Positions 5,334 through 14,500 of a stretch of 32,000 nt of DNA are shown piece after piece. The DNA comes from an uncultured bacterium (lineage in GTDB: Bacteria > Auribacterota > JACPWU01). The translations under genes were made by a program, and so were the position numbers. Within the stretch, counting starts at the first letter, position 1, and every line of letters begins with the position of its first letter. The stretch lies in the NCBI GenBank assembly GCA_964640155.1, contig CAZXEQ010000003.1:284189-316188 (forward strand). The letters are read 5' to 3'. The notes below the pieces were generated by a model. That model searched no databases and was not told the origin of the DNA. It saw nothing but the letters and a program-made list of their open reading frames with translations.

Positions 5334-5993
5334 ATGGACTGGATAAAGAGTTTTATTGATTTTTTTCTTCATTTAGATCATCACCTGCAAGCGGTTATTT
5401 CTCATTGTGGAGTTTGGACTTATGTCATTCTTTTTTTAATTGTTTTTTGTGAAACGGGATTGGTAGTAACTCCGATCCTTCCAGGTGACTCTTTACTTTT
5501 TGCAGCAGGTGCTTTTGCTGCAACAGGTTCATTTGAGATTAAAATTTTAATTGGTCTTCTTTGCATTGCTGCAGTTTTGGGCGATACCTTAAATTATTGG
5601 ATTGGTTTTTTATTGGGGCCCAAGGTGTTTCATAAAGAAGAAAGCTGGTTTCTAAAAAAGAAATATTTAGATCGAACACATCAGTTCTATGAAAAGTATG
5701 GAGCCCAAACCATTATTCTTGCTCGTTTTGTTCCTATTGTGAGAACATTTGCTCCTTTTATTGCTGGAATTGGGCGTATGAAATATGGGAAATTTTTTGC
5801 ATATAATGTGATAGGAGGTATTTTTTGGATATTGCTCTTTGTGTTGGGCGGTTATTATTTTGGTAATTTACCTGTTGTGAAGAAAAATTTTACATTAGTG
5901 ATTCTCGCTATTATTGTTATCTCGATCCTTCCAGGAGTGATTGAATATTTGAGACATCGCAAGAAGCGAGAGGCTGGATATACAACGAAGTAG
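5334..5993 (+). CDS. DedA family (SNARE-associated) inner-membrane protein
   Basis: [19 protein letters not shown] and [14 protein letters not shown] motifs, ~220 aa, multi-TM. ATG 5334 is preceded by TAGGAG; the track start at 5316 is a TTG. Confidence 0.85.
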
Positions 5994-6070
5994 TGCCGAT
6001 CTTTAAAAGAAAATAATAAAAAGGTGCAACGAAGTAGTGACGATTCTTAAAAAGTAATAATAGAGAGGCA
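5983..6070. repeat. Tandem direct repeat, 2 x ~44 nt; copy 1 contains the last codons and stop of the DedA gene
   Basis: Copy 1, caacgaagtagtgccgatctttaaaagaaaataataaaaaggtg (5983-6026), aligns with copy 2, caacgaagtagtgacgattcttaaaaagtaataatagagaggca (6027-~6070). The first 13 nt are identical and the rest is diverged. Confidence 0.75.
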
Positions 6071-6161
6071 CAATAACGGCCTGTACAAGTTCGAGATTTT
6101 TGTGTATTTTCTTCGGGAAAGTCGAGAATAGGAAACCTATAGTTTTCTTTCTTGAGAGGAA

Positions 6162-6183
6162 CAAAAGCTTCGAAGAAATTTTG
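6162..6183 (+). repeat. Conserved tRNA leader box, copy 1 (caaaagcttcgaagaaattttg), ending 8 nt before tRNA-Arg(UCG)
   Basis: 21/22 nt identical to 6439..6460, at the same 8-nt distance from the tRNA 5' end. Contains the 8-nt palindrome cttcgaag. Confidence 0.8.
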
Positions 6184-6190
6184 TGAGGAT

Positions 6191-6264
6191 GCGCCCGTAG
6201 CTCATTCGGATAGAGCGATTGGCTTCGAACCAATAGGCAGCAGGTTCGATTCCTGCCGGGCGCA
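6191..6264 (+). tRNA. tRNA-Arg (anticodon UCG)
   Basis: Hand-folded cloverleaf: gcgcccg/ta/gctc-attcggata-gagc/g/attgg-cTTCGaa-ccaat/aggca/gcagg-ttcgatt-cctgc/cgggcgc/a. 74 nt, no encoded CCA. Confidence 0.88.
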
Positions 6265-6335
6265 CGAGTTTCGATAAAAAAGTCATAAACTAGTGGGAGT
6301 TGAGGGGGGAATAAAGTTTGGAATTTTATAATAAT

Positions 6336-6407: not shown

Positions 6408-6438
6408 CGAAGCGCTATAATTACTTTTTTGCAAGGAG

Positions 6439-6460
6439 CAAAAGCTTCGAAGAAGTTTTG
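6439..6460 (+). repeat. Conserved tRNA leader box, copy 2 (caaaagcttcgaagaagttttg), ending 8 nt before tRNA-Arg(UCU)
   Basis: See 6162..6183. Confidence 0.8.
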
Positions 6461-6467
6461 ACATGAC

Positions 6468-6541
6468 GCGCCCGTAGCTCAGTTGGATAGAGCATCTGCC
6501 TTCTAAGCAGAGGGTCACAGGTTCGAATCCTGTCGGGCGCA
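6468..6541 (+). tRNA. tRNA-Arg (anticodon UCU)
   Basis: Cloverleaf: gcgcccg/ta/gctc-agttggata-gagc/a/tctgc-ctTCTaa-gcaga/gggtc/acagg-ttcgaat-cctgt/cgggcgc/a. 74 nt. The acceptor stem is identical to that of tRNA-Arg(UCG). Confidence 0.9.
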
Positions 6542-6596
6542 CGAATTTTTGAAAAAATGAGTGCCATAATCCTTACATTAACGAAAGGATTCGAAT

Positions 6597-6691
6597 GGAG
6601 GCGAGCGCCTCCTGTGGAGGAAAAGCGAGGGCGGGAGCCCGAACGAAAGCGAGCCGGCTGGCCGACCGAAGTCCCGAAGGGACGTAGGCGC
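6597..6691. other. GC-rich (about 70% G+C by hand count) structured insert of unknown nature, in a ~36% GC genome
   Basis: Local hairpins are visible: ggaggc-gagc-gcctcc (6597-6612), gtccc-gaa-gggac (6671-6683), and an upstream AT-rich hairpin aatcctt...aaggatt (6568-6591). The motifs gcgag and ccgaa recur. No ORF of meaningful size. Confidence 0.5.
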
Positions 6692-6709
6692 CGAATCCTG
6701 TCGGGCGCA
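6692..6709 (+). repeat. Orphan 18-nt copy of the tRNA-Arg(UCU) 3' end (T-loop to discriminator); att-like direct repeat
   Basis: cgaatcctgtcgggcgca at 6692-6709 is identical to 6524-6541 inside tRNA-Arg(UCU). No matching 5' acceptor strand or T-stem partner lies upstream, so this is not a complete tRNA. Confidence 0.85.
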
Positions 6710-6774
6710 AAAATTTAGAGTGTAGAGCTAGTGCATAGTATTAGAGTTAAAGCAGAGTTTTTCTCTATTTTGAC

Positions 6775-7669: not shown

Positions 7670-8134
7670 ATGGCAAAAACTACGGAAATACGTCTAAGCA
7701 AGATGCTTTCAGAAGAAAGAGTTGTTGATCTTATTTCGTCAAAGAAAGATAGTGTCATCAAAGAACTTACCCAAGTGATGAGTACCTCCAAAGCTGTAGG
7801 GCATAAGATAAATTTTTATAAAGCCATTGTCGAAAGAGAGAAAATTGTTAGTACGGGAATTGGTATGGGGATTGCCATACCTCATGCAAAAGAGGAAAGT
7901 GTTTCTGATTTTGTTCTAGCGATTGGGCGTAGGCCTGAAGGGCTTGATTTTGAATCTTTAGATGGTCAACCAGCACAACTTATTTTTATGGTTGCTGCGC
8001 CTAATAAACAAAATGACGATTTTCTTCGTGTTTTATCAAAAATAGTTCTTGTTCTTAAGAATCAGAAATTTCGAAAAAAAATTTTAGAGGCTAGATCTCC
8101 TTCCGAAGTAGTGCAACTCTTTAAGGATAAGTAA
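7670..8134 (+). CDS. PTS EIIA type-2 domain protein (PtsN / EIIA-Ntr-like regulator)
   Basis: Family layout: LSEERVVDL...KDSVIKELTQVM...AIVEREKIVSTGIGMGIAIPHAK (phospho-His site)...LIFMVAAP...FLRVLSKIV. ATG 7670 follows CAGGAGGGGAG. Confidence 0.82.
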   Translation: MAKTTEIRLSKMLSEERVVDLISSKKDSVIKELTQVMSTSKAVGHKINFYKAIVEREKIVSTGIGMGIAIPHAKEESVSDFVLAIGRRPEGLDFESLDGQPAQLIFMVAAPNKQNDDFLRVLSKIVLVLKNQKFRKKILEARSPSEVVQLFKDK

Positions 8135-8478
8135 TGACTAAAAATGAATGTTTTCTCTTAATCGTTTCTGTTTATCAGGATAAGTGCTCCGAAGATGTTT
8201 TGGTTGCTTTGACGGAAAGCGGTGTTAAAGATGTTATGACTTTGACGGGAGCCAATGAAACAAGACGTCTTCCTCAAAATATTCCTCTCTTCGCAGGATT
8301 TAAAAATAGCCTGGGTAAGACGTCTCCTATGAGTAAAATATTTTTGGGAGTTGTTAATGATCCAGAAGTTCCCAAAGCAGTTTTAGCAAATCTTAAACAT
8401 GCGGATATTGATTTTTTGGGAGAAGATTTAGGGGCTATTCTTTTGCTGCCATTGCATACAGCTCATTTACCTTCATAG
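8134..8478 (+). CDS. Small hypothetical protein with a possible PII-like (beta-alpha-beta x2) fold
   Basis: 114 aa. Its start overlaps the EIIA stop (TAATG). The pattern FLLIVSVY..SEDVLVALTESGVKDVMTLTG / long loop / KIFLGVV..PKAVLANLK / AILLLPL resembles PII/ferredoxin-like topology. This is inference only. Confidence 0.45.
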   Translation: MTKNECFLLIVSVYQDKCSEDVLVALTESGVKDVMTLTGANETRRLPQNIPLFAGFKNSLGKTSPMSKIFLGVVNDPEVPKAVLANLKHADIDFLGEDLGAILLLPLHTAHLPS

Positions 8479-8480
8479 CG

Positions 8481-9578
8481 TCAATTCTTAGCTTCAAATA
8501 CACCTTCACTTAAGTATTGATCAGTAGTTTCTGCATCAGGAAAGTCATACCCTAGTCCTTTGCGCCAAACCTCGCTTGATTCCATGCATAAATACATGGG
8601 GACAATACCACCACAATCACGAATCCACCTGGATATTTTGCGATACATTTCCAAGCGTATCATTTTGAGATAACGAAGTTTCCCATCTGTCCCTGGGATA
8701 AATTCTTCATAGAGATAACTACTTTTGGGGAATTTTTCTTGAGCAATTTCTTTAAGATTCCCTAAAAGTCTTAATCCTCCCAAACTGATCCATTTGATTT
8801 GTTTGGGTCGAATGTGTTTGAAAAGGGATTGAATCAGCTCTTGATAATCTTGTTCCCATTCAGGGTAAAAGAGCAGAGGCTCTAAATGAAAACTTAAAGG
8901 ATAGCCCCATTCTTGACAAATACGAGCTGCCGCAAGTCTTTCTTCAATGTTAGGTGTTTTTAATTCTTCTTGATGTGCCATTTTTTTTGTGTTTAAAGAC
9001 CAAGAAACAATGGTTCGTCCTTGATGATCTAGATCTTGTAGGTTTTCAATTTGAATGGATTTCGTTTTAAGTTCAATACACGCTTTTTGAGTTTTTGCGA
9101 AGAAGGGGACAACATATTTAGAAAATTCAGTGATATGGTCGTGAGAAAGACTATCACTCAATTCACCTGTTCCAATGCGAAATTGTGTTTTAGGGCTTGT
9201 TGAGAAAATGCCTTCCAGCTCATTAAACATGTCATTCAAATTTGCATAAATGATGAGAGGAGGGCTATTGAGATAGCTTTGAAGCACACAATAAGTACAT
9301 TCATAATTACAATTACTTGCCGATTCTAGAATGAAATACCCGCAACATAAGGAATCTTTTGCCCCCGGGCACGCTTTTAAGAAATGACCTTTTTGTTTTG
9401 CAATGACAAGTACTTCTTTGCCTTGTTTATCTGTAAGTGAAGAGAATTGACTTTCTAAAGGTCCAGTGAAGTATTGAGGAGTCAAATGAGGTAGATTTTT
9501 AATCACACTTTGAGTGAGGGGTTCATTTAAAACAGATTCTTCGATAAATAGAGATTTAGGAGAGTATGATTTCGCCAT
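8481..9578 (-). CDS. Radical SAM protein, spore-photoproduct-lyase (SPL) family
   Basis: CX3CX2C cluster motif CNYECTYC. The overall layout parallels B. subtilis SplB as I recall it: FIEESVLNEPL ~ YIEPRALEYPL; LVIAKQKGHFLK ~ LVIGVRKTLKF; WGYPLSFHLEPLLFYPEWEQDY ~ AGYPLGFIVAPIYIHEGWEEGY. Confidence 0.8.
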   Translation of the reverse strand: MAKSYSPKSLFIEESVLNEPLTQSVIKNLPHLTPQYFTGPLESQFSSLTDKQGKEVLVIAKQKGHFLKACPGAKDSLCCGYFILESASNCNYECTYCVLQSYLNSPPLIIYANLNDMFNELEGIFSTSPKTQFRIGTGELSDSLSHDHITEFSKYVVPFFAKTQKACIELKTKSIQIENLQDLDHQGRTIVSWSLNTKKMAHQEELKTPNIEERLAAARICQEWGYPLSFHLEPLLFYPEWEQDYQELIQSLFKHIRPKQIKWISLGGLRLLGNLKEIAQEKFPKSSYLYEEFIPGTDGKLRYLKMIRLEMYRKISRWIRDCGGIVPMYLCMESSEVWRKGLGYDFPDAETTDQYLSEGVFEAKN

Positions 9579-11556: not shown

Positions 11557-14500
11557 ATGTACTTAAAAAAACTGGAACTTCTTGGTTTTAAATCATTTGC
11601 AGACAAAACGGTTATTGATCTAGAATCAGGCGTTACGGCCATTATTGGGCCCAATGGGTGCGGAAAAAGCAATGTTGGAGATGCACTTAGATGGGTTTTT
11701 GGTGAGCAAAATCCTCGTATTTTGCGTGGAACTCAGATGGAAGATGTTATTTTCAATGGAACCGATATCCGTAAAGCCATTGGACGTGCAGAAGTTTCTG
11801 TAACTTTTATCAATGACGATAAAGCCCTCCCTGTTGATTATCATGAGGTGACTATAACCCGCCGATTATTTCGATCTGGAGAAAGTCAATATTTGTTGAA
11901 TCAGACTCCTTGTCTTTTGCGCGATATTCGTGAACTTTTTATGGGGACAGGTATTGGAACTAATGCGTACTTCTTTCTTGAACAGGGAAGAATTGACATG
12001 GTTTTGAGTGCAAAGCCAGAAGATCGTCGCGCTGTTTTTGAAGAAGCAGCAGGGATTATGAAGTTTAAGGTTAAAAAGAAAGCTTCTCTTCAAAGATTAG
12101 AATCGACAGATGCTAATTTAATTCGTCTTGCAGATATTATTCGTGAAGTAAAACGTCAAATTATTTCTTTAGAGCGCCAAGCAGGGAAGGCGCGGCGTTA
12201 TCAAGAAGCACGAGATGAGTTAAAACAATTAGAGTTAAAAGTTTCACGCGTTGAATTTGAAGAGCGTTCCAAAGAGTTTGAACAAAGGATTCAAGAATTA
12301 GAAAAGGGAACGCAATTAAAAGATTCTCTTCAATCAGAAGTAGGGATTTTAGAGGCAAAAATTGAAGAGGTTGAAAAAAGTCATCAGGCTATTTTTGATG
12401 AACTTCACCAGCTAGAAAAACAAGACTTAGATCTTTATCATCGCATTGAAACAGCAACGGGTGAGGTGCAGCTTTTAAAAGAAAGACTTTCTGAGTTTGA
12501 AACACGACTTGTTTCGGATGGGCAAGATATTGAACAGGCTCGAAAAAGGCTAGATGAATTAAAAAATCAATTGGTGACCGAAGAGGAAAATAGAAATAAA
12601 TTTCATGATTCCTATAAAGATCAAAAAGCACAACTTCAGCAAAAGAAAACAGGTCTTGAGGATGTGGTGAGACTTTTTGAACAAAGTCAAGAGGGCTTGA
12701 ATTCAGCTAAAGCCCAGTTGATTGATTTAAAGCAACAAGAAGCACAATTTAATAATCAACTCATGGTGCAACATCATCGTCAAAAAGATTTGGTATTAAG
12801 ACAAGAAAAATTAATTACTGAGCAAGAAAAGTTAGCGCTTCATATTAAAGAAAAAGAGAATGAAAAAGCTCAATGTCAAACTAATAACACGAGTGTAGAT
12901 CAAGAAGTTGAAGCTGCTCGCCAAAATTTGAAATCATGTCTTGAAGAAAAGGAAAAAATTGAGTCCGAATTGCTTGCATTTTCTCAAGCGCTAGAAAAGG
13001 AAAAAGAAAAACTTTTAACCAATACGGCTCGCCGTCAGGTCGCCATGGAATTTGGCGCTCTTTCAACATCATCGAATTTTTCAGGCGTGGATACTCTTGT
13101 TCATGCGGTGATGGAAATCCCTCATCAGTATCAAAAGGCTATGAAGGCATGTTTGGGGATTAAACTAGGAGCTATTATCAAAGAAAATCGAAATTTGATT
13201 GAAAGAAGAAATCAGTCTGTTTTTCTTGCGCTGGATGCACAAGTTCAAACCACTGTTGCTGAAAGTCTTTCGTCTCTTCCAGGCTTCATTGGCTATGCAT
13301 CAGAACTTGTTCGGTACTCTGATAAATACCGTAATGCTGTACGGGCTTTATTGAAAGATTTGGTGATTATTCGTGATTTTGAATCATTGAAACAAATTGA
13401 TAATCAGTGGCTAGGTCGTTTTCGTTTTGTAACTTTAGAAGGTGATTTTATTGATTATGATGGAACTTGGTCTTTCAATGGAATTTCAGAAGAAGCCCCT
13501 TTGGATTTTGCTTCACTTGAAAGCGAAATTAATGCATCTACTCAGAAGATGAAAGAAATTCAGTTGTTGAAAACTCCCGTAGAAAGCAAATTATTGAAGT
13601 TAAAAGAAACTTTAGTTCAGGCTCAAAGTCTTTTAAGAACCAAGGAGCTTGAATTAGCCAATGTGGGGGGACATCTGGAAAGATTGGTAGGAAAAGCGAA
13701 AGACCTCGAAGAAGAAAATTGGAGTTTACTAAAAGAAAAAGAAGATCTTGAAAAGGAAATGACAGAATTGGGAGTGATGATCAGTCATATTTCTGAAAAT
13801 CTGGCTTCTGTTTTAGAGAAAAGTAAGAACTTATCCTTTCAGATTGAAGAAAAAGAAAAAGAAGTGACGAGTTTGTCTGAGCAAAAAGAAGCGGCTTTGG
13901 TGGAATTGGCTGAAGTCAAAGTGTTGAGTCGCTCTATTGAGGAAGAAGAAAAACGTTTTCAAACTAGAATTTCAGAGCTGCAAGAGGCTTTTCAAGAAGC
14001 AGAAAGGCTTATCACAAAGCGTGCAGAAGATGTTTTGAGTAACACAAAAAAGAAAGAAGAAAGTCAGCTTAGATTACAAAATCTTACAGAGGAAATTACT
14101 CGTCGCACAGAAGAGCGAGAAGCCTCAAAGAAAAAAAGTTTAGAAATAGCCCAGCAAGTCGAAGGTATTACAAAAAGCCTTCAGTTGGATAGAGAAACAT
14201 TGGGTCGTCAAATTCAAGAGCTTGCTCGATTAAGAGAAGAAATTTCTAATCTTGAGATTAAAAAAGCTCAAGCTGAAATTCAGAAGCAAAATATTGCACA
14301 AAGAATGAAAGAAAAATACGAGATTGATTTATCTACAATTCCTTTGGAGATAGAAGGTTTTGTTTTGGGAGATGTTCAGCAGAAGATCGTAGAGCTTCAA
14401 GAAAAACTTCGCCAAATGGGAGAAGTAAATTTGGTTGCTATTCAAGAGTATGATGAACATAAATCTCGCTATGAATTTTTGATGAAACAACAAGAAGATT

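Follow-up and report, generated by a model that had tools for sequence, protein, structure and literature searches.

A candidate family of small folded elements with target-matched arms at the tRNA T-loops of Auribacterota and Omnitrophota

Introduction

The 3' ends of tRNA genes are the commonest landing sites of mobile DNA, and a direct repeat of a tRNA 3' end that starts in the T-loop is the classic footprint of a tyrosine integrase. To our knowledge, the systems that target tRNA 3' ends all depend on an integrase gene borne by the element. In the 32,000-nucleotide stretch of DNA analyzed here (hereafter, the window), which DedA homologues place among MAGs of the PVC group, such a repeat encloses a short GC-rich block immediately behind a tRNA-Arg(UCU) gene. 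A sequence-only reading of this stretch had offered three explanations for the block: a scar left by the deletion of an integrative island, a miniature non-autonomous element, or a small structured RNA co-transcribed with the tRNAs. We here ask which of these the block represents, relying on its relatives in other genomes and metagenomes.

Results

A GC-rich block framed by two copies of a tRNA 3' end

The tRNA-Arg(UCU) gene is intact, and its 3' end, cgaatcctgtcgggcgca, is found at 6524-6541 and again at 6692-6709 with 0 mismatches over 18/18 nt (0.00 matches expected in shuffles), confirming the exact duplication that had been read from the sequence. A weak extension of this repeat reaches 25 nt (23/25 matching). 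Some 150 nt separate the two repeats, and the element as a whole measures ~170 nt. Its parts, all on the + strand, are listed below (L002 is the nearest related contig).

6468-6541/2, + strand: target gene, tRNA-Arg(UCU), intact (ARAGORN; Rfam tRNA model, 76.5 bits)
6524..6541, + strand: repeat 1 (DR1), from T-loop C56 to discriminator A73 of tRNA-Arg(UCU), exact 18-mer
6542..6584, + strand: element spacer, 96-98% identical to the orthologous L002 copy
6564-6582, + strand: conserved CCATAATCCTTACATTAAC in the spacer, a motif that the Arg-UCG and Arg-CCG copies of L002 share
6567-6573, + strand: partial T-loop-like AATCCTT in the spacer
6585..6595, + strand: anti-arm AAGGATTCGAA, reverse complement of tRNA-Arg(UCU) T54-N64
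6596..6692, + strand: structured core (covariance model R1, 84.5 bits)
6600-6606 with 6649-6655, + strand: helix P_a, with a central tandem G.A
6608-6612 with 6616-6620, + strand: helix P2
6616-6629, + strand: invariant motif GGAGGAAAAGCGAG
6629-6640, + strand: hairpin P_b
6659-6667, + strand: invariant motif TGGCCGACC
6660-6667 with 6687-6692, + strand: helix P3
6671-6683, + strand: hairpin P_c
6692..6709, + strand: repeat 2 (DR2), the displaced tRNA-Arg(UCU) 3' end, whose first 8 nt are predicted to form stem P0 with the anti-arm

The 97-nt core (6596-6692) reaches 70% G+C in a window of ~36-37%, in line with the block of ~70% G+C in AT-rich DNA that had been pointed out earlier. Immediately beside the core, the anti-arm contains an 8-nt exact inverted match to the tRNA; in our model its partner is either repeat 1 or, in P0, the first nucleotides of repeat 2. 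The genes of the window are housekeeping genes only, and Pfam scans of all its large ORFs found no encoded integrase or other recombinase in the 32 kb, as the sequence-only reading had stated. A scan for promoters and terminators found neither on the + strand around the window copy. The GC skew is positive across the window, the + strand being G-rich throughout and therefore the lagging-strand template, a position that suits single-strand mechanisms.

Relatives of the block in other sequence data

A motif scan of metagenome contigs retrieved 40 loci, and true relatives of the block were present on ~20 contigs, several of them duplicates of one another. In total, 17 distinct related copies were found in metagenomes and MAGs. 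Ten of these lie immediately behind a tRNA gene (Arg UCU/UCG/CCG, Leu-CAG, Glu-UUC, Met-CAU (two) and Val-CAC (two)), two more (L023/L050) carry the 3' end of an intron-containing tRNA, and the remaining five occupy non-tRNA sites on contigs of 57-70% G+C (L021, L022, L053, L059 and L060). Contig L021 belongs to Omnitrophota, as its LexA shares 88% identity with the LexA of a Candidatus Omnitrophica MAG. A covariance model trained on 14 copies also matched three that lay outside the training set: L043 1979-2121 (58 bits), L039 2466-2574 (44 bits) and the second L050 copy (76 bits).

The family is sparse. Copy number is low (one per 32 kb in the window), and no copy was found in 75 kb of related Omnitrophota DNA; because of this, recent mobility is not demonstrated. 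A scan of species-representative genomes returned L002 alone (as L015), plus 13 chance matches in GC-rich genomes. Three versions of the element, used as BLAST queries against plasmids and phages, gave nothing meaningful, and two pattern scans of viral contigs found no element. Omnitrophota loci reached through LexA neighbours, in which we looked for filled and empty sites, were non-syntenic and held no copy. A long hairpin with TGGCCGACCGA at L004 9050-9252 is not recognized by the covariance model and was rejected as a member.

None of the 4227 Rfam models matched the core, in the window copy or its GC-rich relatives, at E-values up to 10; the only Rfam matches in these loci were tRNA, tmRNA, RNase P and a group I intron, and none fell on the core. 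On this ground a fragment of an rRNA or of another gene was rejected. We found no description of such an element in the literature. The sequence-only reading had made a discrete element depend on further copies, on covariation and on the block not being a piece of a known gene, and what was found on all three points favours one.

A common layout with arms that follow the target

All tRNA-linked copies share one layout: repeat 1, a spacer or cargo, the anti-arm, a core of ~100 nt, and repeat 2. In 12/12 of them the identity of the repeats begins at T-loop C56, and repeat 2 directly abuts the ...GGCGC that ends the core. The repeats measure 17-44 nt and may extend over the acceptor strand and the CCA and, in L039 Met, over as much as 24 nt of trailer. 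In sequence, the anti-arm corresponds to T54 to ~N65 of the cognate tRNA in reverse complement and thus differs with each tRNA, reading CAGCAGGAATTGAA in L002 Arg-CCG (14/14 by direct reading; 12-nt exact match), GGACTCGAA in L039 Met and GAGGGATTTG in L029 Leu. It lies directly 5' of the core, with 6-12 nt of exact match (7-14 nt by direct reading), in 10/12 tRNA-linked copies; in the larger L039 Val copy it is found further upstream, and extra hairpins stand between it and the core.

Since TTCAATT and TTCGAGT are not palindromes, the anti-arm is truly an inverted and not a direct copy of the target. Its complementarity also covers T54 and T55, 2 nt to the left of the repeat boundary. Three of the Omnitrophota copies at non-tRNA sites (L021, L022 and L059; this reading leaves out L053 and L060) follow the same plan, with unrelated 8-13-nt repeats ~37-40 nt upstream of the core and inverted arms of 6-9 nt. 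The element is therefore a conserved scaffold between two target-derived arms, and in the model the core is closed by a stem in which the anti-arm pairs with the first part of repeat 2.

Filled and empty sites in the closest relatives

The nearest relative of the window, L002 (GCA_041906865.1, labelled Candidatus Auribacterota), has a DedA 92% identical to that of the window in a syntenic locus. In L002 a homologous GC-rich block follows 3/3 tRNA-Arg genes, each block ending in the 3' end of its own tRNA (the one behind Arg-CCG in caattcctgctgggggca). The window has the element behind UCU alone, its Arg-UCG and Arg-CCG sites being empty, and the more distant outgroup L004 has no element behind its tRNA-Arg genes. 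The Arg-UCG and Arg-CCG sites are thus filled in L002 and empty in both the window and L004. Neither an excised circle nor an empty tRNA-Arg(UCU) site in a sister strain was seen among the loci compared; the tRNA-Arg(UCU) gene of L004 is interrupted, a matter separate from the element.

The sequences around the L002 Arg-CCG copy bear on how it arose. Its repeat 2 and the following flank (gggggcA cgaagcgctataatt) equal the uninterrupted site of the window, and its repeat 1 has a discriminator G and the flank cgaagcaccataatc, which is common to other element copies. These polymorphisms appear to split as in attL and attR, as they should if the tRNA 3' end had arrived with the element. The crossover position that they imply differs between the L002 Arg-CCG and Arg-UCG copies, a difference that a fixed cleavage site can accommodate only on the assumption of subsequent gene conversion. 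In L043 the tRNA-Met gene ends in ...gggcccaTTA and has no CCA, with repeat 2 retaining the CCA and the native terminator. In L029, 12 nt past repeat 2, there is a truncated second left end, comprising the anti-arm and the first ~20 nt of the core.

Identity between the window and L002 varied along the locus as follows.

Element core: 96.9%
Element spacer and anti-arm: 96-98%
Flanking genes: 86%
Neighbouring intergenic spacers: 78-90%
Stretch past repeat 2: unalignable

The paralogous copies within L002 appear clearly more diverged than the orthologous pair of window and L002, in an unquantified comparison. As the element is conserved above its flanks, it is under selection or was recently exchanged, and is not decaying as a scar would. 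Such high conservation between two species could equally reflect a function for the host.

An array of elements with cargo

Seven contigs (L023, L050 and L061-65) have an identical arrangement in which a tRNA is followed by a 216-aa ORFan, an element with its repeat, a 983-aa ORFan with a 158-170-aa ORF, and another element with its repeat. The cargo thus amounts to 1 kb and 4 kb (L023/L050), and cargo between repeats was seen in this one organism only. Pfam assigned no significant domain to the cargo proteins (there were sub-threshold matches for the 216-aa ORF only), and the 983-aa protein has 0 homologues among 5.8 billion proteins, so that a search for further arrays through it returned none. 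No match of the Phage_integrase type was found within 10 kb of the L023/L061 array, and none of the loci examined encodes a recombinase, transposase or reverse transcriptase near any copy. Each of the two copies in L023/L050 lies ~30 nt past a strong intrinsic terminator of the gene upstream.

The core has a conserved and covarying fold

Folded singly, the window element is unexceptional (z = -1.8 for the + strand and -1.5 for the - strand), and the evidence for structure is therefore comparative. Helix P_a has 7 bp and occurs as GCCACGC/GCGUGGC, GCCGUGC/GCACGGC, GCCCCGC/GCGGGGC, GCUUUGC/GCAAAGC and GCGCAGC/GCUGCGC; the window lineage has GGC-GA-GC/GC-GA-GCC, with the variants GAC.../...GUC and GCU.../...AGC, so that covarying pairs stand on both sides of a tandem G.A. 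P2 takes the form CCGACC nnnn GGGAGG with a tandem G.A, or, in the window type, the fully paired CCUCC UGU GGAGG. The hairpins P_b and P_c vary in sequence and length. P3, formed by GGCCGACC and GG(G)CGCC, is invariant and for that reason untestable by covariation. Around these helices stand conserved junction nucleotides, with the invariant motifs GGAGGAAnAGYGAG, CGARYG and UGGCCGACC and with loops of the GNRA type.

In an alignment fitted to the model structure, by which the counts are somewhat inflated, P_a and P_b together were paired in 80.4% of cases against 62.0% after shuffling (0/500 shuffles as high; slid controls, 27-34%), with changes on both sides in 9/11 pairs; for five helices the values were 83.6% against 73.2% (0/500; slid controls, 34-38%), with both-side changes in 12/22 pairs. 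The helices also show in a plain MAFFT alignment and, for nearly all copies, when each is folded by itself. P_c in particular is a hairpin of differing sequence in the minimum-free-energy fold of nearly every one of the 16 copies, and is partly formed in L002 3587-3683. The core thus appears, from these comparisons, to be a structured functional nucleic acid whose helices have been kept through compensatory changes.

The + (tRNA-sense) strand is the more stable in 16/16 copies, by a mean of 5.4 kcal/mol, the G.U and G.A pairs becoming C.A and C.U on the opposite strand. The folding strand is therefore the + strand, either as RNA or as single-stranded DNA.

The stems listed by the sequence-only reading fared unequally. 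Its AT-rich hairpin AAUCCUU/AAGGAUU (6567-6573 / 6586-6592) is present in the minimum-free-energy fold, and its gtccc/gggac hairpin (6671-6683) is P_c, which is kept as a hairpin among the relatives. The cctcc segment had been allowed a ggagg partner on either side, and comparison supports just one of these, the + strand pairing of 6608-6612 with 6616-6620. The ggaggc/gcctcc stem forms only when the window sequence is folded on its own and competes with the conserved helices, and gac-cgaa-gtc is no conserved hairpin, as it straddles the junction of two helices.

Several other identities for the block were rejected. A 53-aa ORF at 6557-6718 is unlikely to be coding, as hairpin lengths differ among copies by non-multiples of 3 and changes are compensatory. 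The acceptor stem GUGCC/GGCGC of a tRNA-like gene is not conserved in other copies; a tRNA primer-binding site on the minus strand lacks the TGG that would match the CCA end; and a group I intron remnant is excluded, the core being too small and unrelated. Three Omnitrophota copies abut gene starts, as a minus-strand 5'-UTR riboswitch would, but gene arrangement differs in L021 and the + strand folds better in every copy.

Discussion

A site-specific element at the tRNA T-loop

The reading that we favour, with confidence that is evenly balanced, is that the block at 6542-6709 is a cargo-less, non-autonomous, site-specific insertion element that belongs to an Auribacterota/Omnitrophota family. 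Among the explanations proposed from the sequence alone, the miniature non-autonomous element is thus the best supported, through presence and absence at two sites, the polymorphisms resembling attL and attR, and the cargo array. The element appears to have entered tRNA-Arg(UCU) at the T-loop, between T55 and C56, and to carry a tRNA 3' end of its own, which would keep the tRNA intact (repeat 1) and leave the other 3' end ~150 nt downstream (repeat 2). The folded end of the element, in which a conserved scaffold bears arms derived from the target, probably serves as a recombination or guide module.

We propose that a small circle would contain the repeat, the spacer or cargo, the anti-arm and the core, and that its + strand would fold, as single-stranded DNA or as RNA. 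The duplex of anti-arm and repeat would imitate the T-loop and T-stem of the target, with the conserved core capping it, and an enzyme supplied in trans would recombine the folded strand with the tRNA gene. A single strand exchange at T55/C56 would then yield a tRNA with repeat 1, the spacer or cargo, the anti-arm, the core and repeat 2. Folding is invoked because a double-stranded attachment site leaves an inverted arm 100 nt away without a role. The closing stem of 7-14 bp is short for the site of a two-monomer recombinase; alternatively, the same fold might act as a guide RNA whose two arms read both strands of the target. On this model, the junction of an excised circle or of a tandem copy would read ...GTAGGCGCCGAATCCTGTCGGGCGCACGAATTTTTGAAAA (core, repeat, then spacer), and an empty site would read tRNA ...CGAATCCTGTCGGGCGCAAAAATTTAGAG.

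Comparison with known systems

The copies share several traits with islands and prophages whose tyrosine integrases target tRNA genes. Each of the 12 tRNA-linked copies has a direct repeat of the tRNA 3' end from the T-loop onwards, the element provides a new 3' end in place of the old one (L002 Arg-CCG and L043 Met), one site has been occupied repeatedly (L023/L050), and L029 has a truncated second copy. Unlike such islands, the family has no integrase gene, in the window or in the cargo-bearing loci (Pfam); the window has 150 nt between its repeats and no kilobase cargo, which was found (1 kb and 4 kb) in L023/L050 only; ten different tRNA genes all have the junction at C56; the core of ~100 nt is conserved and structured; and the inverted target copy lies 100 nt away from the repeat and would have no role in a double-stranded attP. 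The element therefore behaves like a tRNA-targeting integrative element, yet has neither the integrase nor the size of an island, and it contains a novel conserved structured module.

Integron cassettes and attC sites, among them attC clusters that have no integrase, are similar in that one or more ORFan genes precede an imperfect palindromic site that folds strand-specifically, units are in tandem beside a fixed entry point, and empty units exist. The resemblance is one of form, however: there is no intI, the interval 6542-6712 has no RYYYAAC/GTTRRRY boxes or GTT triplet (its arms being AAGGATTCGAA and CGAATCCT), the entry point is a tRNA T-loop, and the arrays seen hold at most 2 units. The family lacks the core sites of attC, and its conservation pattern is the opposite one, the arms of attC being conserved and its centre variable, whereas in this family it is the centre that is conserved and the arms that vary with the target.

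A folded strand-exchange topology is known from the attP of CTX-phi as well as from integron attC sites. As in folded single-stranded attP sites of the CTX-phi type, which are used by XerCD, inverted arms ~100 nt apart can anneal within one strand and imitate the target duplex, and one strand exchange would give the order repeat, body, inverted arm, loop, repeat. Here, in contrast, the target is a tRNA gene and not dif, there are no phage genes, and the loop is a conserved fold of several helices; the resemblance is of topology only.

Members of IS200/IS605 and their miniature derivatives are likewise small and rich in hairpins, have one active strand, and contain an internal segment complementary to the flanking target; the window element also lies, as they do, on the lagging-strand template (positive GC skew). 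They differ in having no target duplication and guides of 4-5 nt, as against a duplication of 17-44 nt and an arm of 7-14 nt in the family, whose loci have no TnpA/TnpB gene and are not matched by the IS605-related and HEARO models of Rfam. Rickettsia palindromic elements, Correia elements and REP/BIME sequences are similar in being ~100-150 nt long, structured, non-coding, non-autonomous, and placed between genes and beside RNA genes. Those elements are high-copy and have fixed ends, unlike this low-copy, site-specific family with its target-matched arms.

Other explanations for the block

The strongest competing explanation, though we regard it as somewhat unlikely, is that the core is a structured non-coding RNA useful to the host, part of the tRNA operon transcript and released from it by tRNA processing. 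The stem of anti-arm and repeat 2 would then only close the fold and keep the anti-arm off the upstream tRNA, with the repeat a trace of the spread of the RNA gene; possible roles include a protein-binding or catalytic RNA, a source of tRNA 3' fragments, or a regulator of tRNA maturation. Fixed junction nucleotides, covarying helices, GNRA-type loops and tandem G.A pairs are the usual pattern of a functional RNA, the tRNA-sense strand is favoured in 16/16 copies, the element invariably points the same way as a highly transcribed tRNA gene, and the 97% identity between two species is like that of a tRNA and unlike that of the spacers. Such an RNA would be co-transcribed, there being no + strand promoter or terminator around the window copy. 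However, repeats of 17-44 nt that include the acceptor strand, CCA and trailer exceed what pairing needs and therefore require a duplication at the DNA level, and the element is dispensable behind 2/3 tRNA-Arg genes of the window genome. The position of the L023/L050 copies downstream of strong terminators, the lack of a consistent orientation to neighbouring genes among copies in GC-rich genomes, and the absence of an Rfam match even at relaxed thresholds also speak against it. A role as a co-transcribed RNA would in any case be compatible with the block being a miniature element.

The remnant of a tyrosine-integrase island at tRNA-Arg is a markedly weaker candidate, which we consider improbable. 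On that reading the two 18-mers would represent the cores of attL and attR, and a deletion would have removed the interior, leaving ~150 nt of functionless foreign DNA. The confirmed direct repeat is indeed the classic integrase footprint, the composition of the interior looks foreign, and the polymorphisms at L002 Arg-CCG split as attL and attR would. Against this, 17 independent copies, drawn from two candidate phyla, retain the same core of ~100 nt beside repeat 2, with a constant junction to C56, and random deletions would not spare one and the same piece each time. Copies behind at least 8 other tRNA genes carry the 3' end and inverted T-loop of their own tRNA, the core shows compensatory changes, and the element, with 97% identity, is conserved far better than its neutral flanks. 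No remnant of an integrase was found in any locus, so that the link to tyrosine integrases made by the sequence-only reading is not shown, and its deletion scar is disfavoured.

We regard a local duplication or an assembly artefact (slipped or chimeric assembly over three similar tRNA-Arg genes) as having a negligible chance of being correct, for although tRNA-Arg units are repeated in the window (137 nt at 77% identity) and one independent assembly breaks inside tRNA-Arg(UCU), the same element sequence is present in the independent Logan assembly SRR8893623 (L001), and orthologous and paralogous copies occur in an NCBI MAG and in many JGI/ENA contigs.

Implications

We return to the site-specific insertion element as the preferred reading. 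Whether its relatives form an undescribed family of small folded elements, with a fixed T-loop insertion position in the tRNA genes of Auribacterota and Omnitrophota, is a claim to which we give about equal weight for and against. In contrast to the known integrase-bearing systems at tRNA genes, this family is without an enzyme of its own. For annotation, partial tRNA copies of this kind should not be taken for ordinary island scars.

A conserved folded core with arms that vary with the target has the look of guide-based or structure-based recombination sites. A bolder version, which we put forward as doubtful, is that the core serves as scaffold to a programmable integration module, active as folded single-stranded DNA or as a guide-like RNA, whose arms, one complementary and one identical to the target, specify the site at which an enzyme of Omnitrophota and Auribacterota would insert small gene cassettes, at tRNA T-loops and elsewhere. 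If true, such a module would be a means of cassette capture distinct from integrons, XerCD-dependent elements and the bridge-RNA elements of IS110. If the core is instead co-transcribed with the tRNAs, it would represent a new, widely conserved class of structured RNA that is absent from Rfam. If the fold is a recombination substrate or a guide, it would point to an unknown enzyme and to a new form of cassette capture in two poorly known candidate phyla.

A left-flank hairpin and a large ORF between element copies

In three contigs that carry the GC-rich element at non-tRNA sites (L053, L059 and L060; 55-63% G+C, and probably Omnitrophota), the left flank of the element is a hairpin made up of repeat 1, spacer and anti-arm. 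A large, divergently oriented gene has its ribosome-binding site and its start codon within this hairpin; the products measure 760, >478 and 1914 aa. All three products share an N-terminal ...SP...AGLE(E/Q) motif.

A large ORF also lies between two element copies in the array contigs L050 and L023:

L050 7925-10876 (= L023 8904-11888): 983-aa ORF, flanked by two element copies

The ORF is identical in seven contigs from several samples. Its product carries no Pfam domain, and a search among 5.8 billion proteins returned no homologue except the protein itself.

Repeats in the window

Two further kinds of repeat occur in the window, the first of which is a short unit present in tandem and as a third copy:

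Window 5983-6070, 8104-8135: 44-nt unit CAACGAAGTAGTGCCGATCTTTAAAAG..., repeat families D3 and D8

The tandem copies are found 3' of the DedA stop codon and the third where the PTS EIIA gene ends; the unit may be either a short intergenic repeat or a terminator module. The second kind (families D1 and D4) includes the Arg-UCG and Arg-UCU units (window 6144-6280 and 6421-6557), which are 77% identical over 137 nt, with the similarity covering the tRNA and about 45 nt of upstream leader. Diverged copies of the leader motif AAAAGCTTCGAAGAARTTTTG appear at window 8182-8202 and 14017-14037 (76-81% identical to the family reference copy), and this motif may represent a promoter or processing signal.

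Hairpins, palindromes and inserts at tRNA genes of other contigs

Directly upstream of tRNA-His, the more distant relative L004 contains a 200-nt GC-rich, near-perfect hairpin (9050-9252; dG -118 kcal/mol, z = -14.7) that shares TGGCCGACCGA and GAGAGCGCC with the element core. The covariance model of the element does not recognize this hairpin; it could be a remote relative or a rearranged one. Behind both tRNA-Arg genes of L004, at the place of the GC-rich element of the closest syntenic relative, L002, are palindromes:

L004 7700-7795, 7870-7935: AT-rich palindromes of GCGGATT repeats

The tRNA-Arg(UCU) orthologue of L004 (7968-8300) is itself split in the anticodon loop by an insert of ~250 nt (ctgccttc / insert / taagcag); ARAGORN did not detect the split gene, and the Rfam group I intron model scored below gathering on the insert. 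In a different tRNA, at L023 7431-7693, the insert is identified by Rfam as a group I intron.

A much smaller hairpin occurs in L002 and is absent from the window:

L002 2935-2955, 3071-3089, 3686-3705: mini-hairpin of ~19 nt, tccgccgaaggcgggcatg and variants

It is inserted at the identical position of repeat 2 in two element copies, and the Arg-UCG copy also has it in its 5' arm. The mini-hairpin looks like a second insertion-prone hairpin, smaller still than the element.
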